Shown here piece after piece: positions 9,888 to 31,886 of a stretch of DNA of 64,000 bases (position 1 is the first letter of the stretch; every line of letters starts with the position of its first letter). The position numbers and the translations under genes are program-made. Below the pieces are notes generated by a model. The model searched no databases, was not told the DNA's origin, and worked only from the letters and a program-made list of their open reading frames with translations. The stretch comes from Bacteroidota bacterium. Lineage in GTDB: Bacteria; Bacteroidota; Bacteroidia; JACCXN01. The stretch spans positions 9,336-73,335 of the forward strand of contig JACCXN010000072.1 of NCBI GenBank assembly GCA_013696965.1. The letters are read 5' to 3'.

Positions 9888-11006
9888 TTAAGCTTCTTCC
9901 AGAATCCGGATTAAACTGTCATTTAGGTAAAAAACTTCTTTTCCGTTTTTTTTATAGGATAAAATTCCTGCCTCAACCAACTCCGCCATGTATTTTGTTA
10001 AAGTTGTTCTGGAGGTTTTTCCTAATGCCTCTCCTACAACAGCAGGCTTAATATAAGGTTGATAAAAAAGCGCCTCATTTACTTCCTTGTTGTACCATTT
10101 GATTTCCTTTTTTCCATGGCTTAATGTTGACTCCATTTGTTTGATGATCTGGTCGATTAAATCATTGGTAATTGCAGAGGTTTTGCATACTGCTTCAAGC
10201 ATATACAGTACCCATGGCTTCCAGGCGTTTCTTTGTGTTACAGCGCCCAGGTTAAAATAGTAATCCTCCTTATTATTAATGATATATTTTGAAAGGTAAA
10301 GAATAGGGTGGGAAAGTAGCTTTTTCTGAACCAAGTAGAGCAGGTTCAAAATCCTTCCTGTCCTTCCATTTCCATCCTGAAATGGGTGGATTGCTTCAAA
10401 TTGATAATGGGCAATACACATTTTCAGTAAAGGGTCTTCTGGAAATTGCACATCGTCATCCATATAATCCAACAGGTTTTTTACAAGTTTTTCAATGATG
10501 CCTTTTCCTCTTGGTGGCGTATAGATTACTTCCCCCGGTTTAAATTCACTCGGGCCACGCTTAATAACCACAAGGGCATGTGGAGGGCGAAAACCGGTAT
10601 GGGCATTTTTAACCATCTGAAATACCCTCTTAATAGTTTCTTCCTGTATAATGCCATTCTTTGTAAGTTCATCATGCCCTGCCCATAAGGCTTCTCTGTA
10701 CCTCAATACTTCTTTGGTTGATAAATCAGCATCTTTCTCCTTTACGCTATCTGAAATTGCTTTATATAATTCGTCTTCAGTTGTAAAAATATTCTCTATT
10801 TCTACAGATGTTTTAGCCTCCTGAAGCGCAATGGTATTAATGAGCATAAAAGGATTCGGCAACCTCAGGATATTAGCATTTACGGTTGCCAATTCCCTTG
10901 AAGCCAACAGCAGTTTTTTAAGGATTTCCAGGTCCTCGTCCAGTTTTTTAGAAGGAGGAAGCAATGGTAATTCATTATATGGGAGGTTTCGATCTAATTT
11001 AGCCAT
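9888..11006 (-). CDS. Fic/DOC family protein (class II, auto-inhibited) with C-terminal winged-helix domain
   Basis: HPFQDGNGRTGR active-site motif; N-terminal inhibitory SxxxEN motif (TSVEIEN); about 370 aa. Confidence 0.85.
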   Translation of the reverse strand: MAKLDRNLPYNELPLLPPSKKLDEDLEILKKLLLASRELATVNANILRLPNPFMLINTIALQEAKTSVEIENIFTTEDELYKAISDSVKEKDADLSTKEVLRYREALWAGHDELTKNGIIQEETIKRVFQMVKNAHTGFRPPHALVVIKRGPSEFKPGEVIYTPPRGKGIIEKLVKNLLDYMDDDVQFPEDPLLKMCIAHYQFEAIHPFQDGNGRTGRILNLLYLVQKKLLSHPILYLSKYIINNKEDYYFNLGAVTQRNAWKPWVLYMLEAVCKTSAITNDLIDQIIKQMESTLSHGKKEIKWYNKEVNEALFYQPYIKPAVVGEALGKTSRTTLTKYMAELVEAGILSYKKNGKEVFYLNDSLIRILEEA

Positions 11007-11185
11007 ACGTCCATTTATTTGCTTTTATTGAACATGTTTACGAAATTAAATAAAAAACTGGACATATAATCATAACATGTCCATTATTTGCCTTTTATTG
11101 AACATGTGTAGTTTTGTTGTACAGAAACTGGACATATAATCGTTACATGTTCATTTTATATTAAAAATTGAACATGTTTGGTTTG
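11007..11185. repeat. 2.5 copies of a 70-bp tandem repeat abutting the fic start codon
   Basis: ACTGGACATATAATC...ACATGT...TTATTGAACATGT units at 11057 and 11127 plus a partial copy at 11007; each unit carries AACATGTT-type palindromes. Confidence 0.8.
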
Positions 11186-11310
11186 AATTGATAAAAAGCG
11201 GAGCATCAATTTTTTCTTTTACAGGTTTGTAATTTCCTACCTGTAGAATGATTATCAAAACCTACTCATAGTCCTGAGCCTTTACCTGCACATGGAGAAG
11301 AGTCAATGTT

Positions 11311-11766
11311 AGTATTATTATTAATTAAAGTTTCGGAGTTGTAAATTCCTTGTTTTACTGATGTTTCAGTATGTAAAAATATTTTAGATAAAAAACTGAA
11401 ACATAGAATTAGTGCTTCCAGCACATTTATGTTCAATTGTTTGGCAAAACACACATTGTTGAAAATTAGCAATTTGCGTTGTTGTATTTTTTTAATATAC
11501 TGAAATTAAGGCAATTAAATCAGCTCCGAAACTTCAGTTATTAATTAAAGTTTCGGAGTTGTAAATTCCTTGTTTTACTGATGTTTCAGTATGTGAAAAT
11601 ATTTTAGATAAAAAACTGAAACATAGAATTAGTGCTTCCAGCACATTTATGTTCAATTGTTTGGCAAAACACAAATTGTTGAAAATTAGCAATTTGCGCT
11701 GTTGTATTTTTTTAATATACTGAAATTAAGGCAATTAAATCAACTCCGAAACTTCAGTTATTAATT
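11311..11766. repeat. two tandem 220-bp units, MITE-like with terminal inverted repeats and internal hairpins
   Basis: period exactly 220 bp (11321 to 11541), about 98% identity between copies; each unit bounded by AAGTTTCGGAGTTG / CAACTCCGAAACTT inverted repeats; internal 10-bp stem ATGTTTCAGT/ACTGAAACAT. Confidence 0.8.
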
Positions 11767-12099
11767 TCCTCATAACTAAGTTCAAATCTTCTGTTTTTCA
11801 GCATTAAATCTAATTAACCATTCGGCTATCAATACATACCTCTTCTTCTCCATAAAATTTAGCCAAAAAAACACCTTCGCAATTTGTGATATTTAGAATT
11901 CAGGTAGTAAAGTGGCTGACGGAATTGCCCAAGGTGGGGGAAACCTTCTGCAGAAGCTAAAAAATGTTTTCCTAATCCCGATTCTACCCAATACTCAAAC
12001 GGTTTTTGGTGTAGATAAACATTTCTGGAATTGCTGATTTTTCTTTAATGGATAAAAGGGTATGATTTTAGAAAAATTTAAGTAATTAATACTTAAAAA

Positions 12100-14469
12100 A
12101 TGAAAAGGCTGTATCTGTTTTTCCTTATGTTTTTAATGCAGGTAAATCTTTATGCACAGGAGATAGAGTGGGCAAAGAAGATTAGTATTCCTTTTTGGAA
12201 TCCACATGGAATGTTATATGATAATTCCGGAAATGTTTATCTCTATGGCTCATATTACAGAAACTGGAACATCAATGATCCTGGCCAGGTTATAAATGAT
12301 ACTGTAGGTTCCTTTATTCAAAAATATTCCGATGAAGGCGAATTAATATTTGAAAAAAGGTGGAAGCTTCCATTTTATATCGTTAAAATGATTTTTGATG
12401 GTGATAATGCCTTTTATTTTACTGGCTGTTTTGCAGGTTCTCTTAATCTAAATGGAGTTGCTTTTAATAGTATGGGCGAATATGATGGTATGGTAGGGAA
12501 AATGGACTTAAATGGCAATATTTATTGGGTTAGTACTTTCGGAGGAGGTAAATCTGATTTTGGAATGGGCATAAGCATGTATGCCAATAGCACAAATTTG
12601 CTGATAACAGGTTCTGTAGCTGATTCTCTTTTTGTAAACAGCCAGTATAAAGGCAGTGAACCCCTTCCAATGTTTTTAGGCATTTTTAATTTAAATGGGC
12701 ATAATATAAAAAACAAACTTGTTGATTTTATTCCTGAAAGAATCCATTCAAATAGAGGAATAGAAATAACCTGCGACAAGAATAATGAAATTTTTGTTCT
12801 TGGGGACAGAGAAGGCGCCCATTGGTATGGTGATACTATTGATGGCCCTTTAGCAGGAAGATATATCATAAAATTTAATGAAAATCTTGATACCCTATGG
12901 TCGAGGTATTTGATTGGGCCATCCTGTTATAACGGATGGAGCAATGGAAATCTTGTAGCCGACAGCAAGTGAGATATTTATACCAGAAGTTACTGCTCTT
13001 TTAAATATGGTGGAGATGGCAGTATCAGCAGGTTAAGTAATTCGAATGCAAGTACATTATGGACAGGGCAAAATAGGGATGGGGGTTATAGTGATATTTT
13101 TTTCCGTAACAATTCCATATGGTTTGTTGGTAAAGAAGGGGCAAATGGCTGCCCTTGCCCTGGCAGCAATTCTGGTTATCAGGTGATAAAGAAGATGGAT
13201 GAAAATAACCAACTTTTGGGTGAGGCAAGGATAATGGGAGTATGGCTACGGAAAATTATTCAGGATAATCAGGGAAATGTATTTGTATATGGTGCTTTTA
13301 ATGAAAGGCAAGCACATATTGGCAAAGATGTAATACTAGCTGATAGTATTTCAAGCAGTGGTACTTCTTTTTACTATTCTGGACATTTTTTAATCAAACT
13401 GAATGATAAAAACTGTACTCCTCCAAGTATTAATGATGTACCACACCATCCATTTAACAGGATTATTTGCCCAGATCAGGTCTTTCAACTTGATGCAGGC
13501 CCTGGCTTTGTGGATTATGAGTGGAGTAATGGTTCTAAAACTCAGAAAATAGAAGTTTCTGAGCTAAACAGATATACCGTAAAGGTGAAGGATAAGAATA
13601 ATTGCATTTCATACTCATCTCCAATTTCAATTTTACATAAAGAAAATAGTTCTGTACACAATTTATGCCTGATAACTTATGAAAATGATAAACAAATAAT
13701 TTATGGCACTTTGAATTTTGATTATAGTACAAAGAATTATAAAATATACAAAATAGATAAAGCAACAGGAGATACTGTAGATGTTTTGTTTGAAGATTAC
13801 AAAAATTATTTAAATGTTCAATTTGTTGATGAAAATTCTACACCTTCAACCAAAGCTTATTTATATTCCATTTCAAAGGTTGATACTTGTGGCCTTGAAT
13901 CACCAGTTAGTGTTGCCCATAAGCCAATTCTGCTAAAAATAAGAAAGGAAGGCACAAGTAATTTACTTGAGTGGGAGCCTTATGAAGGGATGGATATTCA
14001 TAGCTATCATATTTATAAAGGAACAGATAAAGGGAAGATGCGTTTGGTTGATTCTATTGGTGTTTCAGTTTTAATTTACGTTGACACAAATCTGGATAGC
14101 CTTTTTCATTATCAGGTGAAGGCCAACAAAAAATTATTTTGTTACTTGGGTAGTAGTAATTATTTTGGAACTACATCTTCAAATATTGTTGTGGATGAGG
14201 CCTATGTACCTACAATTGTTGAGGCAACTGAAATGGATATTAATGCCGATCTCTTTCCTAACCCTGCCCATGATATTTTAACCATTCAGCTTCCTGAACA
14301 AAAACAAGTAACTATAGTTCTTAAAAACCTATTAGGAGAGGTACTTTATAAAACCTCAGGCAATCAAAATAAATTTGAAATTCCAATGCAAAATTTTAAA
14401 CAGGGTTTATATGTTATTTCTATTGATTATGGAGTGGAAAGGAAGCAGTTTAAAATTATAAAACATTAA
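12100..14469 (+). pseudogene. T9SS-sorted secreted repeat/Ig-like protein interrupted by one in-frame TGA (12970-12972)
   Basis: ORFs 12100-12972 and 13183-14469 are in the same frame with no other stop between them; N-terminal signal peptide; C-terminal T9SS CTD (LFPNPAHDILTIQL...). Confidence 0.6.
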
Positions 14470-14804
14470 AAGTTTTTAGTCATAAAGGCTGTTGTAATTT
14501 AGGATGGTATAAATTATCTATTTATACTTTTGGTTTTATACTTGCAAGGAAAACTTTAAAATATATTTAAGCAGTTTTCATTCTGTATTCTACATTTTGA
14601 TACTATCAAATGCTAATGAAGCCACCTAATGAAATAACCCACCTGAACAAAAAAAATCAGTATTAAAGTAATCAGCCTTTTCATAATCTACACTTTTTAA
14701 TTTAAAATCTTAAGCATTTTCATCACTACAACTTGTCCCGTCCCGAAAGCTTTATAGGTCATCGGGATCACCATAATCCGCTAATCATCGCATCCGCTAA
14801 TTAG

Positions 14805-16877
14805 TTAATTGATAACCAGCTTCCTCCTCACCAAATCCTCCCCAACTTTCACCTGCACAAAATAAATTCCTTTAGAAAAGCCACTGGTGCTGATGTTTTC
14901 GTTGCTTTTTACCTGGCGCTGGAGCATAATTCTTCCTGAAAAATCGGTGATGGTAACATCAGCTTTCTCGGCTTCAAAAGAAAGGGTGAAATGGGAAGAG
15001 GTGGGGTTTGGGTGGAGGAGAAAATTAATTCTATTTATTGCTTCCGACTCTATACTGACATTACTACTTAATTCCATGCTGTGTATATAAACTCCTCCTC
15101 TGTTCAGCGATGCATAGAGTTTACCATCTCTTACAACTAATCGCCAAATTTTATTTCCTGCTAAATCATTTTCTAAATCAAAATCTATCCCCTCATTCAT
15201 TGGTTCCCAGGTTTTGCCAAAATCTTTGGTGAACAAAAGGTTTCCATTATAATTGACTGTAATGGCTATTAGTGAATCCTCTATAACAATATTGCTAACA
15301 AGATTTTTAAATCTCATATTTGAATTGTCTTCCCAGGCCTTGTTCCAGGTGGCCCCACCATCACGGGAGATATAGAGGCCTTGGTTAAAAGTACCTATGC
15401 ATATTATATCACCTTTTACTTTTGCTGAGTATATTTCCCATATACCCAACCAGGAAAGAATTGCAATTTTTTTAAAGGTTATACCACCATCATCTGACCT
15501 AAATAATTCCTGCCTTGTAAAGCCATAAATGAAATCATTGTCTGAATCCAATAAGCTATAATTTTCACCTCCTAAATATTTATAAGATTTTCCTTCAAGC
15601 TCATATAGCCCGTGAGTGGTGGACAGCAACAGTTTACCTTTATGCTTTAAAAAACTTTTGGCACTTATATCATTTGTACTGTCAGGAAAAATGACTTCCC
15701 ATTCATTGCCTCCTTGTTTTAAGATGCTTAATTGTAGTTTATCGTCAATAATATAAATATCCCCTTTGTAAGTTTGTGCTTGGGTAATATAACCTGGGGA
15801 AAAATAGGGAGTAGGTTTGCCTGAATCAGAAAAGGCGAATTGAGTGCTTAAGTCAGGAGATATTTTTTCCCATTTCTGTTTTTTCTCATCCAGCTTGTAT
15901 AGTTTTTGATTAATTGAAGCTAACAGGCCTGCATCAGTATTTGAAAGGCTATATACTGGAGCGCCATTTAGAAATATGCTGGCTTCTTCCCAGGTGCCAT
16001 TGTTGAATTTGTATATTCCATTAAAATTATCTGTTCCTGCAAATAAATGCCCTTTGAACTTTACAAAAGAGGTTACATTTTTTCTTTCAAGTCCGGTACC
16101 CAGGTAATTCCATGTTAAGCCATTATCAACAGAATAGTACACACCGTTGATGGTGCCAGCATAGAGGGTGTCAGTGTCCATAAAAAAAGTTCTTAGGTAT
16201 GCAGGTATAGATATGGTTTGTTCCAGCCACGTTTGCCCCAGGTTTGGAGAAATATGATAACCTAAAAAAATACTGTCCCCTTTAAATTCTAAGGCATTTG
16301 AGCTTCTTGGAGAATCAATGGTTTTCCATGATAAGCCATTGTTATAAGATATACAAGTTTTGCCTTCATTTTGCCTTTTTGTACTTGCTATTAAGGTATT
16401 ATTTCCAGCTGCAAATGAAACAAAATTCCCTCCTATGACTAATTTCCAGGTATTATCATTGAAGCCACATTTTAAAATTCCACCCTGATGGCAGAAAAAA
16501 ACAGTGTCATCAATCGCTGCAAATCTAGGTACACCATCCCAACTAGAGGAATGAAAGTAAAAGTTATCATTCTGAATCATCTCCTGCCAGGAATCTCCGT
16601 TATCAAGGGAAACATAGTATTTACCTGTGTAAATAAATAATTTTCCTCTGTAGTGAAAAATGGCCCTTGTGAATTCATAATTATTAAAATTCCATGTTTT
16701 GCTTCCATCATCAGAAAAATATAACCCTCTATCGGTGCCAGCGAAAATTCGAGTATCGGAGGCCGCAAGGCAATTAATAGTCGCACCGTAAGGCCCGTTT
16801 GTGGGCTGCCAACTTTCCTGGGCCTGTACTAAGCCCTGTAATACAACAACCATTGAAAACAAAATCAACTTTCTCAT
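14805..16877 (-). CDS. BNR/Asp-box repeat protein with T9SS C-terminal sorting domain
   Basis: signal peptide; many SxDxGxTW Asp-box repeats; C-terminal LHPNPTSSHFTLSFEAEKADVTITDFSGRIM...KLVIN block shared with the four downstream genes. Confidence 0.8.
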   Translation of the reverse strand: MRKLILFSMVVVLQGLVQAQESWQPTNGPYGATINCLAASDTRIFAGTDRGLYFSDDGSKTWNFNNYEFTRAIFHYRGKLFIYTGKYYVSLDNGDSWQEMIQNDNFYFHSSSWDGVPRFAAIDDTVFFCHQGGILKCGFNDNTWKLVIGGNFVSFAAGNNTLIASTKRQNEGKTCISYNNGLSWKTIDSPRSSNALEFKGDSIFLGYHISPNLGQTWLEQTISIPAYLRTFFMDTDTLYAGTINGVYYSVDNGLTWNYLGTGLERKNVTSFVKFKGHLFAGTDNFNGIYKFNNGTWEEASIFLNGAPVYSLSNTDAGLLASINQKLYKLDEKKQKWEKISPDLSTQFAFSDSGKPTPYFSPGYITQAQTYKGDIYIIDDKLQLSILKQGGNEWEVIFPDSTNDISAKSFLKHKGKLLLSTTHGLYELEGKSYKYLGGENYSLLDSDNDFIYGFTRQELFRSDDGGITFKKIAILSWLGIWEIYSAKVKGDIICIGTFNQGLYISRDGGATWNKAWEDNSNMRFKNLVSNIVIEDSLIAITVNYNGNLLFTKDFGKTWEPMNEGIDFDLENDLAGNKIWRLVVRDGKLYASLNRGGVYIHSMELSSNVSIESEAINRINFLLHPNPTSSHFTLSFEAEKADVTITDFSGRIMLQRQVKSNENISTSGFSKGIYFVQVKVGEDLVRRKLVIN

Positions 16878-16937
16878 TATCTTAAACTTTCAATTTTCTA
16901 AAAACCACATCCGTTAATCCGCTAATCATTTCATCCG

Positions 16938-18389
16938 CTAATTAATAACCAATTTCCTTCTTACAACTTCCTCCCCAACTTTTATCTGCACAATATATAT
17001 CCCTTTAGAAAAGCCGATGGTGCTGATGTTTTCATTGCTTTTTACCTGGCGCTGGAGCATAATTCTTCCAGAGAAATCGGTGATGGTAACATCTGCTTTT
17101 TTGGCTTCAAATGAAAGGGTGAAATGGGATGAGGTTGGGTTGGGGTTGAGGGAAAGGGAAGTCTTTGAAATATTTCTTTTTATAGCTGAATTCTGTTCTG
17201 GCAAGGTATCCGGAGGAAAATTTCGCAAAGCGTATTTTGCTAAAAATGTATAATAACTGTCTTCAGTTTTTCCAATGTTGAAAGGGCCAATACTTATCGG
17301 TTCATTGGCCGTCCCAAAAAAATATAAATTATCATTTTCATCTATGCTTACTTTTTGACCAGTCAATTTGACTGCCCAGCCTGGCACAAAGGTTTCAAGT
17401 AATTCTCCTGTTTCATCATTTAATTTCCAGGCAAATGATTTGGTTTTACCATCGCCAGATGCCACATAACCAGTTCCATAAAGATTTCCATTTTTGTCAA
17501 AAACTATGTTCGAAAATTGACTGTAAACAGCATCTATATTGGTCTTCCAGGTTTCCTTTCCATCTTTTGAGTTTTTGAATAAGGTAATGCCGGAATATCT
17601 GCTGACATTGGCTCTATAAACACTTCCGTCTTCTTTTACTTTTAGAAACCCTTGAGAACCATATGGATTCCCACCTTTATTCTGAAAATATTTTACTTCT
17701 AGGTTTGTGTCGAAAATTATTTCAAAATTATTGGTATAAAAGCCATCCCATCCGGAGCTTATACTTTCAATCAACCAAAAATCTTCCCTGTTGCCACCTA
17801 TCAGGTATATAAAACCCAGGGTGTCGGATTCAATTCTTTGGCCGAACCCTCCCTTCTTTGCCTCAAAGGCTTTTAATGCTTTGCCTACAGAATCAATTTG
17901 AATTATAAACAATCCACTATTACTAAAGGTATAGTCTCCAAAGTGGTCACCTTGGTTAGCTTTTCCCGTAATCCAATAATTTCCATAATAATCTATGTGG
18001 ATTTCGGAAAGCGATACCTGCTCATTTCCTTCCAGGTTCTGTTGCCACATTGAATTTCCGTCTTCTGAGAATCTTTCAAGTGTAAACCTTTTTTTATCCT
18101 GGCTTCCATAGGTAAGAAAAAAACCTCCCTGTTTCAATGTCTTCAAAGAAACTGTCCAATAATCATTTGAGATTTGCCTGGTCCAGAGCATTTCCCCTTC
18201 AGAAGAAAATTTTTCAAGGTTTATTTTTTCTTGTTCACTATCAAAATGAAATAAATAAATGTTTCCAAATGCATCCACATCGCAGGAAGAAGAGCGTATA
18301 AAATCGAGCTCTTTTACCCACTCCCATTCCTGGGCTTTAACCTGCACCTGAACAAAAAACATCAATATTAAAATAATCAGCCTCCTCAT
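16938..18389 (-). CDS. secreted T9SS cargo protein, paralog family member (QEWEWV N-terminus, shared CTD)
   Basis: signal peptide, conserved post-cleavage motif, divergent core, near-identical 3' 270 bp. Confidence 0.75.
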   Translation of the reverse strand: MRRLIILILMFFVQVQVKAQEWEWVKELDFIRSSSCDVDAFGNIYLFHFDSEQEKINLEKFSSEGEMLWTRQISNDYWTVSLKTLKQGGFFLTYGSQDKKRFTLERFSEDGNSMWQQNLEGNEQVSLSEIHIDYYGNYWITGKANQGDHFGDYTFSNSGLFIIQIDSVGKALKAFEAKKGGFGQRIESDTLGFIYLIGGNREDFWLIESISSGWDGFYTNNFEIIFDTNLEVKYFQNKGGNPYGSQGFLKVKEDGSVYRANVSRYSGITLFKNSKDGKETWKTNIDAVYSQFSNIVFDKNGNLYGTGYVASGDGKTKSFAWKLNDETGELLETFVPGWAVKLTGQKVSIDENDNLYFFGTANEPISIGPFNIGKTEDSYYTFLAKYALRNFPPDTLPEQNSAIKRNISKTSLSLNPNPTSSHFTLSFEAKKADVTITDFSGRIMLQRQVKSNENISTIGFSKGIYIVQIKVGEEVVRRKLVIN

Positions 18390-18509
18390 AATTTACACTT
18401 TTTAATTTAAAATCTTATGCATTTTACCATCACCAAATCACTTTCCCGATTCGTACCTCAAATGGATTTCGCTTCTCTCATAATCCGCTAATATCGCATC
18501 AGCAATTAG

Positions 18510-20051
18510 CTAATTGATAACCAGCTTCCTTCTTACCACATCCTCTCCAAGCATCACCTGCACAAAATAAATCCCTTTTGAAAAGCCGCTGGTGCTGATG
18601 TTTTCCTTGCTTTTTACCTGCCGTTGGAGCATAATTCTCCCTGAAAAATCGGTAATGGTAACATCTGCTTTTTCGGCTTCAAATGAAAGGGTGAAATGGG
18701 ATGAGGTGGGGTTTGGGTGGAGGTTGAGGGAAGAGTGAAAATTCTTGTTTTCTGAATGTACTTTTGTAAATTTTTCGATTGTGTTTATTTTGATAAGAAA
18801 GTTTATTTTAAGATTATCCCGATTGACTTCCAAATTATTACCAAAACTAATTAATGAAGAAGATACTCCTGTTATATAAAGGTTTTTGTTGTTGTCATAA
18901 CAAATTGAGTATCCTATTGATTCCCAGCTTTCAATTTCACTACTTTTCAATTTGAAAATTTTCGTACCTGTTGAATCTGTTAATTCTACACTTAATCCTG
19001 TTTTAGGATAATTTAAAAATGTACTCAATGTTGCAAAACCATAATTTATTAATTCCATCTTAATAGGATGTAGATTGTTTAAGCTAAAACCCCAACGATA
19101 ATTAAGCAGACTATCGTAGCTTTCAATTCGATCAGTACAGGGTGAATGATTGCCACAGAATGATCTATAAAAATAAAAGTTGTTAATTGAATCAATTTTA
19201 AAATCGGAAATAAATTTGCGTGAGCTCGAAATATTCTTATGATTTAAAAAATAGCCTTCTTTGGAAAATTTGAGCATATACTGGCCACTTTCATAAGCCA
19301 GTAAATTATTTGAGAAATTAGTTTCTCCATTAATGCGGGCAATTAAATAAATATCATCCTGATTATTTATTTTAATTAAATCTGGCTTGGATCCAATAGG
19401 ATTAATTAAAGAAGGTGAGTCTTTAAGAAATATTTCTTTTGCCCATAGAGATACACCGTAAGTATCATATTTGGCATAAAAGATATTATCTTCTTCAGCT
19501 TCTGAAAAAAACATTTGATTATTAATTGACCCGCCCTTACTAAAGCTTCCTGTAATCACAATTTCACTATTCTTTATATCCATGGTTTTGAAAACTTCCT
19601 TCTTAGTCCCTCCATCCCTTTTTACCATCTTCAAATCCCTCTCCATATCAAAAGAAGCCAGAAAAATATCCCAACCACCGACAGAAGTTTCATCTCCTAA
19701 ACTTGATTTCAAAGTCCCTGTAAAATTCCCCCCAATATAAGCCACCCCTGCTTTGGCTTTAAGCTCAACCATTACAAGGGTATCAGTACTTCCAATGGTT
19801 TTCCACCAAAGGATATTCCCATCTTCATCATACCTTAAAACAAAACAAGCTGATTTTTCAGGTGAGGCAATTGTAACTTCTCCTAATTTGCAAGAGCCTT
19901 TGAAATTTCCTGAAGCAAAAAGATTTCCTTCTTCGTCCGCGGCTGTTTGGAGGTTTTCAATGCCTTCGCCTTCTATAACCCATTCCCAATCCTGGGCTTT
20001 AGACTGCACCTGAACAAAAAACATCAATATTAATATAATCAGCCTTTTCAT
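18510..20051 (-). CDS. secreted T9SS cargo protein, paralog family member (mosaic; 5' 450 bp about 95% identical to the 21819-23375 gene)
   Basis: N-terminal 145 aa nearly identical to the gene at 21819-23375, then divergent, then the shared CTD. Confidence 0.75.
   Translation of the reverse strand: MKRLIILILMFFVQVQSKAQDWEWVIEGEGIENLQTAADEEGNLFASGNFKGSCKLGEVTIASPEKSACFVLRYDEDGNILWWKTIGSTDTLVMVELKAKAGVAYIGGNFTGTLKSSLGDETSVGGWDIFLASFDMERDLKMVKRDGGTKKEVFKTMDIKNSEIVITGSFSKGGSINNQMFFSEAEEDNIFYAKYDTYGVSLWAKEIFLKDSPSLINPIGSKPDLIKINNQDDIYLIARINGETNFSNNLLAYESGQYMLKFSKEGYFLNHKNISSSRKFISDFKIDSINNFYFYRSFCGNHSPCTDRIESYDSLLNYRWGFSLNNLHPIKMELINYGFATLSTFLNYPKTGLSVELTDSTGTKIFKLKSSEIESWESIGYSICYDNNKNLYITGVSSSLISFGNNLEVNRDNLKINFLIKINTIEKFTKVHSENKNFHSSLNLHPNPTSSHFTLSFEAEKADVTITDFSGRIMLQRQVKSKENISTSGFSKGIYFVQVMLGEDVVRRKLVIN
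19610..20051. repeat. about 450-bp direct repeat (5' coding block), copy 1
   Basis: near-identical to 22919-23375 at nucleotide level, inferred from near-identical sense and antisense translations. Confidence 0.7.
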
Positions 20052-20203
20052 AATTATAAATTTTTATTCTCAATTCACTCAACATCAGCTAATCCGATTC
20101 CCTATTCCTACCTCACCGGGATTTCGCTCTCTCATAATCCGCTAATCATCGCATCAGCTTCCCGATTCGAACCTCATCGGGATTTCGCTTCGCTCAAAAT
20201 CCG

Positions 20204-21796
20204 CTAATTGATAACCAGCTTCCTCCTCACCACTTCCTCCCCAACCTTCACCTGCACAAAATAAATCCCTTTAGAAAACCCGCTGGTGCTGATGTTTTCG
20301 TTGCTTTTTACCTGCCGCTGGAGCATAATTCTTCCTGAAAAATCGGTGATGGTAACATCTGCTTTTTCGGCTTCGAAGGAAAGGGTGAAATGGGATGAGG
20401 TTGGGTTGGGGTTGAGAGTGAGGGGGATTATCTTTGTTTCAGATATTATTGGAGTTGTTTCACCTTTATATGGTGTTGTAAGTTTTGCGAAAAATAATCT
20501 CTGAAGGGTATCTGAGGTATTTAATTTAAAACTACCTAGGACTAAATTTCTATTCCCCTCGGTGCAATAGTAGTCAGTTCTGTTGTAATTTCCAATTACA
20601 TAAGAATTTCCCTTTCTATCGCTGATAATATCAGTTATTTTATTGCATCCATCACCTTCAGAAGTAATTGCCCATTGAAATTTATTATCTTTAGATATGC
20701 CTGCCAATAACAATCTTTCCATTGTATCTGGAACAATGTAATGACTGTCAAAATAAACAGTATCAAAATTCATATAAACATTTTTTTTTATGGCTCCTGA
20801 TATTATTATATCTTCTTCATTTTGTGCAGTGATAAAATTCGTGTAATAACCATTATAATATTTACCTACATCTTTTCTAAGGTTGCTTGTTCCGTTAGAA
20901 AGTTGGTCATAAATTGATCGGTCGCCATAATTATATCTGGTTTTCATATTAAGGGAAGTAATTTTAGAATTATATGATATAAAATCTACAGATGCCCATG
21001 TAAAGGAAAATTGTATTATTTGAATTTCTTCTCCGCTAGGTTTAATCTTAAAAATTATATTCTTACCACAATACGCATAACAACCAGGTTCAAGTGTGGA
21101 AAGTGTGGAATATGAAGAGAGGAAGATATAATTATCAGGGCCAACCTTAATTTTAGCTCCATTGTGATTATTAATACTATCGTTTAAATGCCAAATAAAT
21201 TCTCCGTTTTTATCAAGTTTAATTAAATAAGCCCAACTTTTCTTATCGTTATTAATGGTATTATTTTCAATCAAATAATCGCCAAAAATCTGGCCTCCGA
21301 AATAAATGTTTCCTTTTATATCAACTCCGACAGAACTAGCTATTTCTTTATTTTCATCATTTCCTATAGGTTTTGCCCATATACAATCCCCTTCTGGATT
21401 AAATTTTGCTAAAAATGCATCAGAGCTCCCAAGGCTTAAAATTGATATTGAATTAAAGCTCAGTTGCACAGTGAATAGACCCACTAAATAAAAGTTGCTG
21501 TTATTATCTGTAGTAATGTCTTCAATTATTCCTGAATAATTCTTACCCCAAATGAAATTTCCATCTATGTCGTATTTTAAAATGAAATAGCCAGTGTCAA
21601 GAGTAGTATTAATTATTTTGCTTTTGCCATCCTGGTAAGCCAAGACGTAAATATGTTGTTGATTAAAGCAAATTTTCCTGGCATCCTGTCGGCCTTCTAC
21701 AACATCGAATCCTTTCACCCACTCCCAGTCCTGGGCCTTTACCGCTCCCATAAGTAGGGTAATCATCAGAAATAACAAAAACTTTTTCATAACCAA
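20204..21796 (-). CDS. secreted T9SS cargo protein, paralog family member
   Basis: signal peptide, AQDWEWVKG motif, shared CTD. Confidence 0.75.
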   Translation of the reverse strand: MVMKKFLLFLMITLLMGAVKAQDWEWVKGFDVVEGRQDARKICFNQQHIYVLAYQDGKSKIINTTLDTGYFILKYDIDGNFIWGKNYSGIIEDITTDNNSNFYLVGLFTVQLSFNSISILSLGSSDAFLAKFNPEGDCIWAKPIGNDENKEIASSVGVDIKGNIYFGGQIFGDYLIENNTINNDKKSWAYLIKLDKNGEFIWHLNDSINNHNGAKIKVGPDNYIFLSSYSTLSTLEPGCYAYCGKNIIFKIKPSGEEIQIIQFSFTWASVDFISYNSKITSLNMKTRYNYGDRSIYDQLSNGTSNLRKDVGKYYNGYYTNFITAQNEEDIIISGAIKKNVYMNFDTVYFDSHYIVPDTMERLLLAGISKDNKFQWAITSEGDGCNKITDIISDRKGNSYVIGNYNRTDYYCTEGNRNLVLGSFKLNTSDTLQRLFFAKLTTPYKGETTPIISETKIIPLTLNPNPTSSHFTLSFEAEKADVTITDFSGRIMLQRQVKSNENISTSGFSKGIYFVQVKVGEEVVRRKLVIN

Positions 21797-21818
21797 CTTT
21801 TAACTTTTAACTTTTAAT

Positions 21819-23375
21819 TTAATTTACCACCAGTTTCCTCCTTACCAATTCCTCCCCAACCTTCACCTGAACAAAATAAATTCCCTTTGAAAATCCTTGG
21901 GTGCTGATGTTTTCGTTGCTTTTTACCTGCCGCTGGAGCATAATTCTTCCAGAGAAATCGGTAATGGTAACATCTGCTTTTTCGGCTTCAAAGGAAAGGG
22001 TGAAATGGGATGAGGTTGGGTTTGGGTGGAGGGATTCGGATAATTGACGACTTATTGCATCGAAGCCAGTCTGGGTTTCAAAAGAATGATTCTTAGCAAT
22101 TTTAGCAATATATTGAACTTGTTTTCTATTTTCATTTATTATTTGGGCTCCAAAAGATATTTTATCAGCTAAGGCTCCTGAAATAATAACAAAATCTGAT
22201 GAAACTGAAAATATATTGTGCGGGGATATAGAATAAAATGTCCCTGCTGATTCTACTTTTCCAAGATTGAAATTTATTAATTTTCCTTCTGTATTAAATT
22301 CTTGAATTAAAAGTCCATTCTTATTTTCATTGTTATAATTGTTAACCGAAGTAAAAATTAGAATTTTATCTTCCTTTACTTCTAATGATAAAGGATAAGC
22401 GGGCTCTGCGTTTATTGAATAGATCCAATTTGCATTCCCAGAACTATCAGAGTATTTCGAAAGCGAAGTTATGATATATCTGATACTGCTCCGAAAAAAA
22501 CGATAAAAAAAACCATCTGAATCAATATGTATTGATTTAGTAGAATGGCCGGGATTGCTTATGCAATATAAATATTCAAGAAAATCACCTTGAGGAGAAA
22601 ATTTTAATAATTTGTCACAAGAATTAAAGGTTGTATCAACTTCACCAATCCTAATATTTTGTATCCCACAACTAATATATATATTTCCCTTTGAGTCCGT
22701 TACTGCCATACGAGCAAAACTATACGAATCCTCTCCACCTAAAAATTCTTTTATCCACTCATAGTTACCTAGCGTGTCCATTTTTAAATAATATGAATTA
22801 TTTCTTGTAGACTGTGATGTGAAGTTTATGTTCCCAATTTTTCCTCCAACTGAAAAGCTGCCAATAACAATTAAATCTTCTCCCGTAAAAGCCAAGGAAA
22901 CCAGTTCCTCCCTCTCAGGCCCACCATCCCTCTTCACCATCTTCAAATCCCCCTCCTTATCAAAAGAAGCCAGAAAAATATCCATTCCACCTGCAGATGG
23001 GGAAATACCTAAACTAGATTTCAAAGTCCCTTTGAAATTTCCTCCAATATAAGCCACACCTGCTTTGGCTTTAAGCTCAACCATTGCAAGGGTATCAGTA
23101 CTGCCAATGGTTTTCCACCAAAGGATATTCCCCGCTTCATCATACCTTAAAACAAAACAAGCTGATTTTTCAGGTGAGGTAATTGTAACTTCTCCAAGTT
23201 TGCAGGAGCTCTTAAAATTTCCGGAAGCAAAAAGGTTTCCCTCTTCATCAGCGGCTGTTTGGAGGTTTTCAATGCCTTCGCCTTCTATAACCCATTCCCA
23301 ATCCTGGGCTTTAGACTGCACCTGGAACAGGATAATCATTAAAACTATAAATAACATTCTCATAAATACATACAC
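21819..23375 (-). CDS. secreted T9SS cargo protein, paralog family member (mosaic partner of the 18510-20051 gene)
   Basis: see the 18510-20051 gene; shared CTD. Confidence 0.75.
   Translation of the reverse strand: MYVFMRMLFIVLMIILFQVQSKAQDWEWVIEGEGIENLQTAADEEGNLFASGNFKSSCKLGEVTITSPEKSACFVLRYDEAGNILWWKTIGSTDTLAMVELKAKAGVAYIGGNFKGTLKSSLGISPSAGGMDIFLASFDKEGDLKMVKRDGGPEREELVSLAFTGEDLIVIGSFSVGGKIGNINFTSQSTRNNSYYLKMDTLGNYEWIKEFLGGEDSYSFARMAVTDSKGNIYISCGIQNIRIGEVDTTFNSCDKLLKFSPQGDFLEYLYCISNPGHSTKSIHIDSDGFFYRFFRSSIRYIITSLSKYSDSSGNANWIYSINAEPAYPLSLEVKEDKILIFTSVNNYNNENKNGLLIQEFNTEGKLINFNLGKVESAGTFYSISPHNIFSVSSDFVIISGALADKISFGAQIINENRKQVQYIAKIAKNHSFETQTGFDAISRQLSESLHPNPTSSHFTLSFEAEKADVTITDFSGRIMLQRQVKSNENISTQGFSKGIYFVQVKVGEELVRRKLVVN
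22919..23375. repeat. about 450-bp direct repeat (5' coding block), copy 2
   Basis: near-identical to 19610-20051. Confidence 0.7.
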
Positions 23376-30716: not shown

Positions 30717-30790
30717 CGGTCCGGACGGGACTCGAACCCGCGACCTCCTGCGTGACAGGCAGGCATTCTAACCAGCTGAACTACCGGACC
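30717..30790 (-). tRNA. tRNA-Asp (anticodon GTC)
   Basis: reverse complement folds as a cloverleaf: acceptor GGTCCGG/CCGGACC, D-arm AGTTCAGCTGGTTAGAAT, anticodon loop CTGTCAC, T-arm GGTTCGAGTCC; CCA not encoded. Confidence 0.9.
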
Positions 30791-30959: not shown

Positions 30960-31886
30960 TTAAAGCATTTTAGATCGCTTTATAAGATAGGGGAGTAGCA
31001 CTTGATTAAAACCCTCACCAATATCTGCCTCTACAAATTCTATTTTATATTGACCACACTTTAACATCAACTCTTTATTGTATTCTTTTATAGCTTTCAA
31101 ATAGTTTGACTTTACTTCGTTTGCGTGGACTTTTACCTCCTCGCCAGTTTCAACATCAATAAATTGATAGGGTCGGTTTTCAAATTCAAAATCTAGTTCT
31201 TTCTTTTTATCTGTAACATGAAACAGTATTACCTCATGTTTATTATGCCTGAGATGTTGAAGGGAAGAAAATAAATCATCCTTGGAAGCTGAACTTTCCA
31301 TCATGTCACTAAAAATTATCACCAATGAGCGGCGATGAATATTATCAGCAATTTTATGCAATGCCTGAACTGCAAATGTTTTCTTTTTATCCGGCTTATC
31401 TTCCAGCAATTGCTCCATTTGATCAAAAAGATATTTATGATGCATTGAAGTTGATTTGGACGGAGTATGCAATTCAACATCCTGGGAAAACACACTTAAG
31501 CCGGCTGCGTCTCTTTGTCTTCCAAGGAGTTCAATGAGTGCGGCTGCGCAATATATTGAAAAATGGATTTTACTAAACTGGTTATCCTTTAAAGATTCCT
31601 TCAAGGGATAATACATTGAAGAGGAATTGTCAATGATTAACTGACATCTTAAATTTGTTTCTTCTTCAAAGCGCTTTATAAATAATTTTTCTGTACGGGC
31701 ATATAATTTCCAATCAATATGCCTTGTTGACTCACCGGTATTGTAAATGCGGTGCTCAGCAAATTCAACTGAAAAACCATGAAAAGGACTTTTATGCAAA
31801 CCGGTAATAAAACCTTCTACAACTTGTTTGGAGAGTAGTTCAAGATGGGAATACTGCTGAAGTTGGTGTAGGTCTATGCTTGCCAT
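30960..31886 (-). CDS. DUF58 domain protein (vWA-like, MoxR/Bat-associated family)
   Basis: FHGFSVEFAEHR.Y..GESTRHIDWK signature of DUF58; no adjacent MoxR ATPase in this window. Confidence 0.75.
   Translation of the reverse strand: MASIDLHQLQQYSHLELLSKQVVEGFITGLHKSPFHGFSVEFAEHRIYNTGESTRHIDWKLYARTEKLFIKRFEEETNLRCQLIIDNSSSMYYPLKESLKDNQFSKIHFSIYCAAALIELLGRQRDAAGLSVFSQDVELHTPSKSTSMHHKYLFDQMEQLLEDKPDKKKTFAVQALHKIADNIHRRSLVIIFSDMMESSASKDDLFSSLQHLRHNKHEVILFHVTDKKKELDFEFENRPYQFIDVETGEEVKVHANEVKSNYLKAIKEYNKELMLKCGQYKIEFVEADIGEGFNQVLLPYLIKRSKML

Follow-up and report, generated by a model that had tools for sequence, protein, structure and literature searches.

The two near-identical units that lie head-to-tail at positions 11318-11766 of the 64,000-nucleotide stretch of DNA analyzed (the window), which comes from an uncultured Bacteroidota MAG, are very probably each a 213-bp non-autonomous DNA transposon (MITE), with a transposase encoded elsewhere and belonging to the IS4/IS701 superfamily. 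The pair has the anatomy of such an element, a dispersed family of relatives exists, target-site duplications are present, and one autonomous insertion sequence (IS) has the same ends. The leading candidate of the original prediction, a MITE captured as a tandem dimer, is thus supported, in particular by some 71 relatives, by the TTATTAA copies that bracket the units, and by the ends of the autonomous element, L092.

Tandem Repeats Finder (TRF) places the array at 11318-11766, with a period of 220, 2.0 copies, 98% matches and no indels; the start at 11311 proposed previously was 7 nt too far left. Base-by-base comparison reveals exactly four differences between the units, at 11375, 11454, 11479, and 11523 of unit 1 (unit positions 58, 137, 162, and 206), the two copies being 98.2% identical, and the predicted pair of head-to-tail copies with a 220-bp period and 4-5 mismatches is therefore borne out by both approaches. 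The two elements have the same orientation, are 213 bp each, and are separated and bracketed by TTATTAA, the order in the window being TTATTAA / TTA-AAGTTTCGGAGTTG...CAGCTCCGAAACTT-CAG / TTATTAA / TTA-AAGTTTCGGAGTTG...CAACTCCGAAACTT-CAG / TTATTAA. Two 213-bp elements with three copies of a 7-bp duplication account for the period (213 + 7 = 220); the TT at 11765-11766 matches the first two bases of the element by chance, hence the 9-nt overhang of the TRF array.

The first duplication (11318-11324) stands in the same register as the duplications of the family, 3 nt outside the AAGTTT core. It is followed by MITE copy 1 (11325-11537, plus strand), the left (TTA-AAGTTTCGGAGTTG, 11325-11341) and right (CAGCTCCGAAACTT-CAG, 11521-11537) ends of which match the family end CTS-AAGTTTCGGAG-TT and those of L092. 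The second duplication (11538-11544) is common to both elements and, with the adjoining ends, forms a 41-nt near-palindrome (11521-11561). MITE copy 2 (11545-11757, plus strand) then runs from its left end, TTA-AAGTTTCGGAGTTG (11545-11561), to its right end, CAACTCCGAAACTT-CAG (11741-11757), and the third duplication (11758-11764) closes the array. The 14-nt arms, AAGTTTCGGAGTTG and CAACTCCGAAACTT, are perfect in unit 2 (11548-61 and 11741-54), as had been claimed for both units (with arms of 14-15 bp), but match at only 13 of 14 positions in unit 1, where the right arm reads CAGCTCC. Both copies have the left terminal trinucleotide TTA, versus CTC or CTG in the family, and it may be that the left element end in the window is degenerate.

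In each unit, the ~55 nt on the left and the ~55 nt on the right make up a longer, imperfect inverted repeat, to which the left arm of the copy 1 internal hairpin also belongs. This internal hairpin has 10-bp arms (ATGTTTCAGT and ACTGAAACAT) and is located at 11361-11404 in copy 1 and at 11581-11624 in copy 2 (plus strand in each case); the second strong hairpin that had been described is thus present, but with a loop of 24 rather than 27 nt. The weaker third hairpin is also present, as the short GC hairpin GTGCT-TCC-AGCAC (11412-11424 and 11632-11644, plus strand), which is terminator-like by pattern only. The two-arm pattern occurs twice in the window, compared with 0.00 expected occurrences in window shuffles.

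A scan of JGI metagenomes for AAGTTTCGGAG followed, after a gap of 155-215 nt, by CTCCGAAACTT, i.e. with the 11-nt arm cores as the sole requirement, gave 76 matches, where our own estimate would predict roughly one. About 71 of the 76 are true relatives, in about 19 subfamilies; L014, L016, L045, L051, and L052 were rejected as family members, being unrelated palindromes or coding sequence. The family shares an 18-nt end, C (92%) T (94%) C/G (76/15%) - AAGTTTCGGAG - T (96%) T (97%) C (77%) A (86%), the seven positions of which that were not forced by the scan pattern are 76-97% conserved among the ~71 relatives. By contrast, the interiors of the subfamilies are mutually unrelated, with lengths of 183-242 bp and GC contents of 0.24-0.61, while identity within the other subfamilies ranges from 67 to 100%. 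Copies were found at 25 loci in one sample group and at 11 in another, and as many as three share one contig (of 486 kb). The window interior constitutes a subfamily of its own, of the minority CTG/CAG end type.

As target-site duplications, exact direct repeats of 6-8 bp lie directly outside the ends of 44 of 75 elements, with lengths of 6 bp (23 elements), 7 bp (19), or 8 bp (2), and they occur only in this register, i.e. beyond the three-nucleotide tip (CTC...GAG or CTG...CAG); flanks re-paired at random as a control match in 0.3% of cases. The duplications are copy-specific, e.g. TTAATAC at L024, GTCTTAA at L030, ATAGGAA at L036, and TAAAATA at L081, and the target consensus is AT-rich, TTATAA. 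Additional copies with diverged ends are likewise duplicated, including one at L029 (TCATTAA) and a 369-nt copy in L070 (TACGAA). Shared ends combined with copy-specific, AT-rich duplications are hallmarks of a MITE family. The expectation that a MITE should be present as dispersed copies with target duplications is thus realized at the level of the family, but not for the window interior itself, of which no further copy was found in the 64-kb window, the 76 metagenome loci, or plasmids.

BLAST searches of plasmids with the unit and with the consensus end gave no matches. Among species-representative genomes, a collection that excludes the locus of the window, the strict two-arm pattern produced only a chance match in a GC-rich Anaerolineae satellite (L006/L007). 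This satellite, on the Anaerolineae MAG contig CBDAUV010000034.1 (L006 1-2400, L007 1300-2100), extends over kilobases in tandem and inverted blocks of ~155-nt units and is unrelated to the MITE family. In a search for a longer element, the longest end pair in ~480 kb of metagenome DNA spanned 369 nt. The ends CTS-AAGTTTCGGAG-TTCA were found neither in the full text of 8 million papers, where the matches were primer coincidences alone, nor in Rfam; ISfinder lay outside the search, and the family may be catalogued there.

The link to a transposase comes from a scan of viral contigs for a single end, CTGAAGTTTCGGAGTT, which yielded L092. The second end of this element, ...GTCCGAAACTTCAG, was not forced by the search pattern and lies 1,445 nt away in inverted orientation. 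Between its ends, CTGAAGTTTCGGAGTT / CTGAAGTTTCGGAC, this 1,462-bp element is occupied by a 441-aa ORF encoding a DDE transposase (Pfam DDE_5 at 3e-28, with DDE_Tnp_1 also matched) that has a complete YREK motif, Y-(2)-R-(3)-E-(6)-K, YSDRWSEEQTIKDCK. The other matches in the viral-contig scan (L012 and L090-L096 apart from L092) were mostly chance occurrences in coding sequence, only L092 being informative, and in L089 a lone end lies at the edge of the contig. A transposase-alignment scan of viral contigs recovered L092 again, together with two partial CTSGACTTT-type elements. L092 (620-2120) is without a clear target duplication and lies between the hairpin-like halves CCCTTCG...CGAAGGG, a position that looks like insertion into a stem-loop.

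The DNA hosting L092 is 69% GC and its closest transposase homologues are actinomycete; among autonomous IS, precisely these ends were found solely in this GC-rich, actinomycete-like context, outside the Bacteroidota. Homologues with 38-55% identity occur on Streptomyces, Kitasatospora, and Mycobacterium plasmids, in ~1.5-kb elements with ends CTCGACTTTCGCTGTT, CTCGACTTTCGACGTT, and CTTGACTTTCGCAGTT, compared with CTCAAGTTTCGGAGTT in the MITEs. The plasmid homologues are flanked by the duplications TGACTAC (7 bp), CTGCGCG (7 bp), and CGACTC (6 bp), with L097 (54% identity) having a 7-bp and L100 (38%) a 6-bp duplication; the transposase clade closest to the MITE ends therefore shares the duplication length of the MITEs. 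More distant homologues, with 24-28% identity, are found in Acaryochloris, Sinorhizobium, and Deinococcus and have CTCGACTTT ends with 5-bp CTAAG duplications. In these three elements (L101-L103, on Acaryochloris pREB3, Sinorhizobium pSmeRU11b, and a Deinococcus plasmid, respectively) CTAAG or CTNAG is present on both sides, a 5-bp duplication at a palindromic target, versus the AT-rich duplications of 6-7 bp in the closer clade.

The proposed mechanism is that a DDE transposase encoded elsewhere would recognize the terminal inverted repeats of the unit and cut an AT-rich target, here TTATTAA, at positions staggered by 6-7 bp, repair of the cuts then duplicating the target on either side of the insertion. 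The autonomous partner in the host would, on this proposal, be a ~1.5-kb element with CTSAAGTTTCGGAG ends. No transposase, recombinase, or integrase was found in the 40 of the 47 window ORFs of at least 120 aa that were scanned, which include all those longer than 215 aa. It can be inferred that such a transposase mobilized the window pair in a Bacteroidota host.

The strong folding of the units invites the alternative that they represent a tandem duplication of a gene for a structured small RNA, which would act in cis or in trans; the original prediction had allowed for such a gene. As RNA, the plus strand folds at -58 kcal/mol (z = -6.1) and the minus strand with z = -4.2, and a promoter-like motif of the Bacteroidota type, TTTG-N18-TAGTTTTG (11087-11116, plus strand), faces the MITE pair and, beyond it, the cargo gene; if this site is used, both MITE copies would lie within a long 5' leader. 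However, the single-stranded DNA also folds significantly (z = -4.6), as is expected of any long inverted repeat, and the strong fold arises because of the long imperfect terminal inverted repeat; the hairpins follow from these repeats and are no evidence of RNA function. The Rfam scan proposed earlier, when run on the units, gave no match to any family, either at the gathering threshold or at relaxed E-values, and 20 family loci likewise gave none at the gathering score, the best relaxed matches being chance miRNA models. The only Rfam match in the window is a tRNA gene (30717-30790, minus strand), beside which an ORF (30960-31886) encodes a DUF58/VWA protein and no integrase. The family conserves only its 18-nt ends, the interiors being unrelated between subfamilies, and the opposite would be seen with a functional RNA. 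A small RNA gene is thus very unlikely. With respect to coding capacity, the units have TTG-start frames only, of 68 and 52 aa on the minus strand, without real homologues among 1.84 billion representative proteins; the 52-aa frame found only two long proteins, judged spurious (multiple or no aligned stretches). The claim that the units carry no ORF is essentially right.

A similarly small probability attaches to the possibility that the units are a recombination or attachment site at the edge of an accessory island, whether an att site or a breakpoint hotspot. As had been described, they lie between fic (9888-11006, minus strand) and a block of Por_Secre_tail (T9SS cargo) genes that extends from 12100 to 23375. 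The nearest relative (L008/L108) is 92% identical through fic, then loses homology at 11178 and is without 11179-20152, i.e. the units and four cargo genes, consistent with an island edge near the units. The breakpoint, however, falls outside the units, 140 bp left of the array, a short repeat, AATTGATAA, is present at both edges of the missing segment, the scanned ORFs are without an integrase, and transposition fully explains the ends and the duplications; the earlier suggestion that the units mark the block edge is thus not supported. With the entire ~9 kb around the units missing, this relative cannot serve as an empty site, and in the search for such a site the other Fic-cluster members proved to be the same rearranged relative.

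Several features of this neighborhood are apparent. The ~9-kb segment that contains the MITE pair, together with four T9SS cargo genes that are paralogs of one another, is missing from the nearest relative (GCA_013820985.1 / GCA_020064125.1) or rearranged in it; the 9-mer at its edges lies near 11186-11194 and 20206-20214, and the 56 nt past the far edge match the relative in the orientation opposite to that expected of a simple deletion. Directly upstream of the fic start codon are three ~70-bp direct repeats (11009-11184), each with a hairpin, TGGACAT...ATGTCCA, and ATTGAACATGT motifs; they are kept in the 92%-identical relative and look like operator or promoter repeats for fic, the product of which has a C-terminal winged-helix domain. 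The first cargo gene after the MITE pair (12100-14469) is in one frame with a single in-frame stop at 12970-12972 (...ADSK*DIYTRS...VIKKMDENNQ), which divides it into a 290-aa ORF, comprising the N-terminal region without a sorting domain, and a 428-aa ORF with the T9SS sorting domain. The gene is identical in every strain assembly that covers it (two MAGs and one Logan contig), and would be either a pseudogene with a nonsense mutation or one translated by read-through.

An invertible promoter, in which a site-specific recombinase would flip the ~180-bp interior between the 14-bp inverted repeats and so switch fic or the T9SS cargo genes on and off, is less probable still. The arrangement does resemble Bacteroidales invertons in that ~200 bp lie within short perfect inverted repeats, between divergent genes, one of them for a surface or secreted protein, and upstream of it. 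Yet the direct target duplications of the family differ from copy to copy, and inversion sites generate no such repeats; the 40 scanned ORFs include no recombinase, and the Bacteroidota TAnnTTTG promoter motif is absent from both strands of the unit. Logan contigs assembled at k=31 from two samples cross the inner arm edges unbranched, L002 ending at 11347, 6 nt past the inner arm edge, and L005 starting at 11713, 28 nt past it; both break exactly k-1 bases into the tandem repeat, as the repeat alone predicts. Since an appreciable flipped fraction would break contigs at the arm edges, none is seen in the two samples, low-frequency variants being below the reach of this comparison. The strain assemblies, i.e. 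two NCBI MAGs and contigs from two short-read runs, are 100% identical over both units. The window pair therefore differs from the Bacteroidales invertons in having target duplications and in being without a recombinase among the scanned ORFs, an internal promoter motif, or a flipped variant in the short-read contigs.

With a MITE as the preferred identity of each unit, there is the matter of how the dimer arose. The route that appears somewhat favored is a single insertion followed by unequal exchange or replication slippage between the flanking direct repeats. Such a process would necessarily give a head-to-tail arrangement, for which there is only an even chance under a second insertion; both copies carry the atypical left tip TTA; their 98.2% identity is at the top of the 67-100% range within subfamilies; and the repeat available for exchange is effectively 9 nt (TTATTAATT), owing to two chance bases after the third duplication. 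The other route, which is possible though less probable, is the second insertion of a near-identical copy into one duplicated target. In its favor, TTATTAA is a near-consensus target of the family, and the exchange route would have a perfect 220-bp tandem survive long enough to gain four substitutions. The abutted pair is the only one among about 77 loci.

A more ambitious and, on balance, unlikely proposal is that the transposase tends to choose its own target duplication, beside a resident end, for a further insertion and, jointly, that the end CTS-AAGTTTCGGAG-TTCA defines an undescribed and unusually conserved MITE/IS lineage, with representatives in the Bacteroidota, the Pseudomonadota, and an actinomycete-like host, and thus in no fewer than three phyla, and repeatedly spawning MITEs with unrelated interiors. 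Were such self-targeting to occur, the window dimer would be no passive duplication. The least credible of the readings is that the pair represents an (IS)2-type intermediate of transposition, of the kind formed with abutted ends by IS30, IS21, and IS256, rather than a fixed genomic duplication. Although the right and left ends do abut across 7 bp in the 41-nt near-palindrome, two independent MAGs carry the identical dimer as a fixed feature, including the same four differences, and the breaks in two short-read contigs from additional samples fall at the places expected of a tandem repeat. The spacer corresponds exactly to the target duplication, no other of the ~77 loci has an abutted pair, and IS4-type enzymes act by cut-and-paste through hairpins, as is established for Tn5 and Tn10.

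Related copies with the same ends appear to be present in several bacterial phyla, the host assignments, which are taken from neighboring genes, being indicative only. Beside the largest subfamily (41% GC) is a TonB receptor, the named relatives of which are almost all from Gammaproteobacteria or Pseudomonadota, with at most 51% identity, one being from a Thermodesulfobacteriota bin (45%). Beside a 60%-GC subfamily is a protein with relatives almost all from Gamma- and Betaproteobacteria, at about 60% identity, with one weaker match to a Deltaproteobacteria MAG. The lineage is seemingly abundant in some environmental Pseudomonadota, with dozens of copies, and is also present in Bacteroidota; its ends, CTS-AAGTTTCGGAG-TTCA, together with a 6-7-bp AT-rich duplication, are diagnostic. 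For annotation, the 449 bp are best labeled as two MITE copies and not as a small RNA gene, a phase-variation switch, or an island boundary; the window pair is an ordinary mobile-DNA relic, with no new RNA gene or switch. Such repeats also break short-read assemblies, as in the Logan contigs.

Among the closest characterized families is the ISPepr1 subgroup of IS4, defined by the end signature YT-AA-YTT---A, flanking direct repeats 7-8 bp in length, AT-rich target sites, an element size of 1,500-1,600 bp, and a complete YREK motif (De Palmenaer, Siguier and Mahillon 2008, PMC2266710, Table 1). Compared by this published signature, the MITE ends are similar in starting with 5'-CT, with 8 of 8 specified positions matched in CTCAAGTTTCGGA, in CTGAAGTTTCGGA, and in the TTAAAGTTTCGGA of the window; the targets are AT-rich and the window duplication is 7 bp, as in that of ISTeha8, an ISPepr1 member (TTATTCA; PMC10269466). 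L092, at 1,462 bp, has a complete transposase YREK motif and the same length as ISAsp3, a curated ISPepr1 member located on Anabaena plasmid B (PMC3542288). By contrast with ISPepr1, about half of the duplications in the MITE family have a length of 6 bp, and the L092 transposase falls in NCBIfam IS701_3 (NF049999), with 256.6 bits versus a cutoff of 170, the IS4 models scoring far below their cutoffs (24-35 bits versus 115-250).

The likeness to IS701 is in the transposase, which is above the IS701_3 equivalog cutoff (families NF049999 and NF033540), and in the distant homologues L101-L103, with CTCGACTTT ends and 5-bp CTNAG duplications. IS701 itself, however, is described as having ---YACT-Y--YR at its ends, duplications of 4 bp, and a YREK motif that is incomplete (PMC2266710); the MITE ends, which read CTSAAGTTTCGG, are off this signature, and the MITE duplications are 6-7 bp rather than the published 4 bp. 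There is thus a conflict of classes, in that the HMM assigns the transposase to IS701, whereas IS4/ISPepr1 is indicated by the ends, by the length of the duplications, and by the YREK motif. As judged from these sequence comparisons, the element is a putative MITE that can be placed in the IS4/IS701 superfamily, with ends like those of ISPepr1 but of ambiguous subgroup; the lineage is thereby tied to a transposase clade intermediate between IS701 and IS4/ISPepr1 as these are defined, where HMM- and end-based classes disagree.

Bacterial MITEs are exemplified by the Correia elements of Neisseria and RUP of pneumococcus. Cyanobacterial MITEs have also been listed, for Anabaena sp. 90 (PMC3542288). 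The family described here resembles bacterial MITEs in being small (183-242 bp) and non-coding, with terminal inverted repeats and flanking duplications, in having, in subfamilies other than that of the window, several dispersed copies per genome, in a strong potential to form hairpins, and, at the family level, in the existence of a matching full-length IS. It differs from them in that one 18-nt end is common to subfamilies with unrelated interiors, in hosts with GC contents ranging from 24 to 61%.
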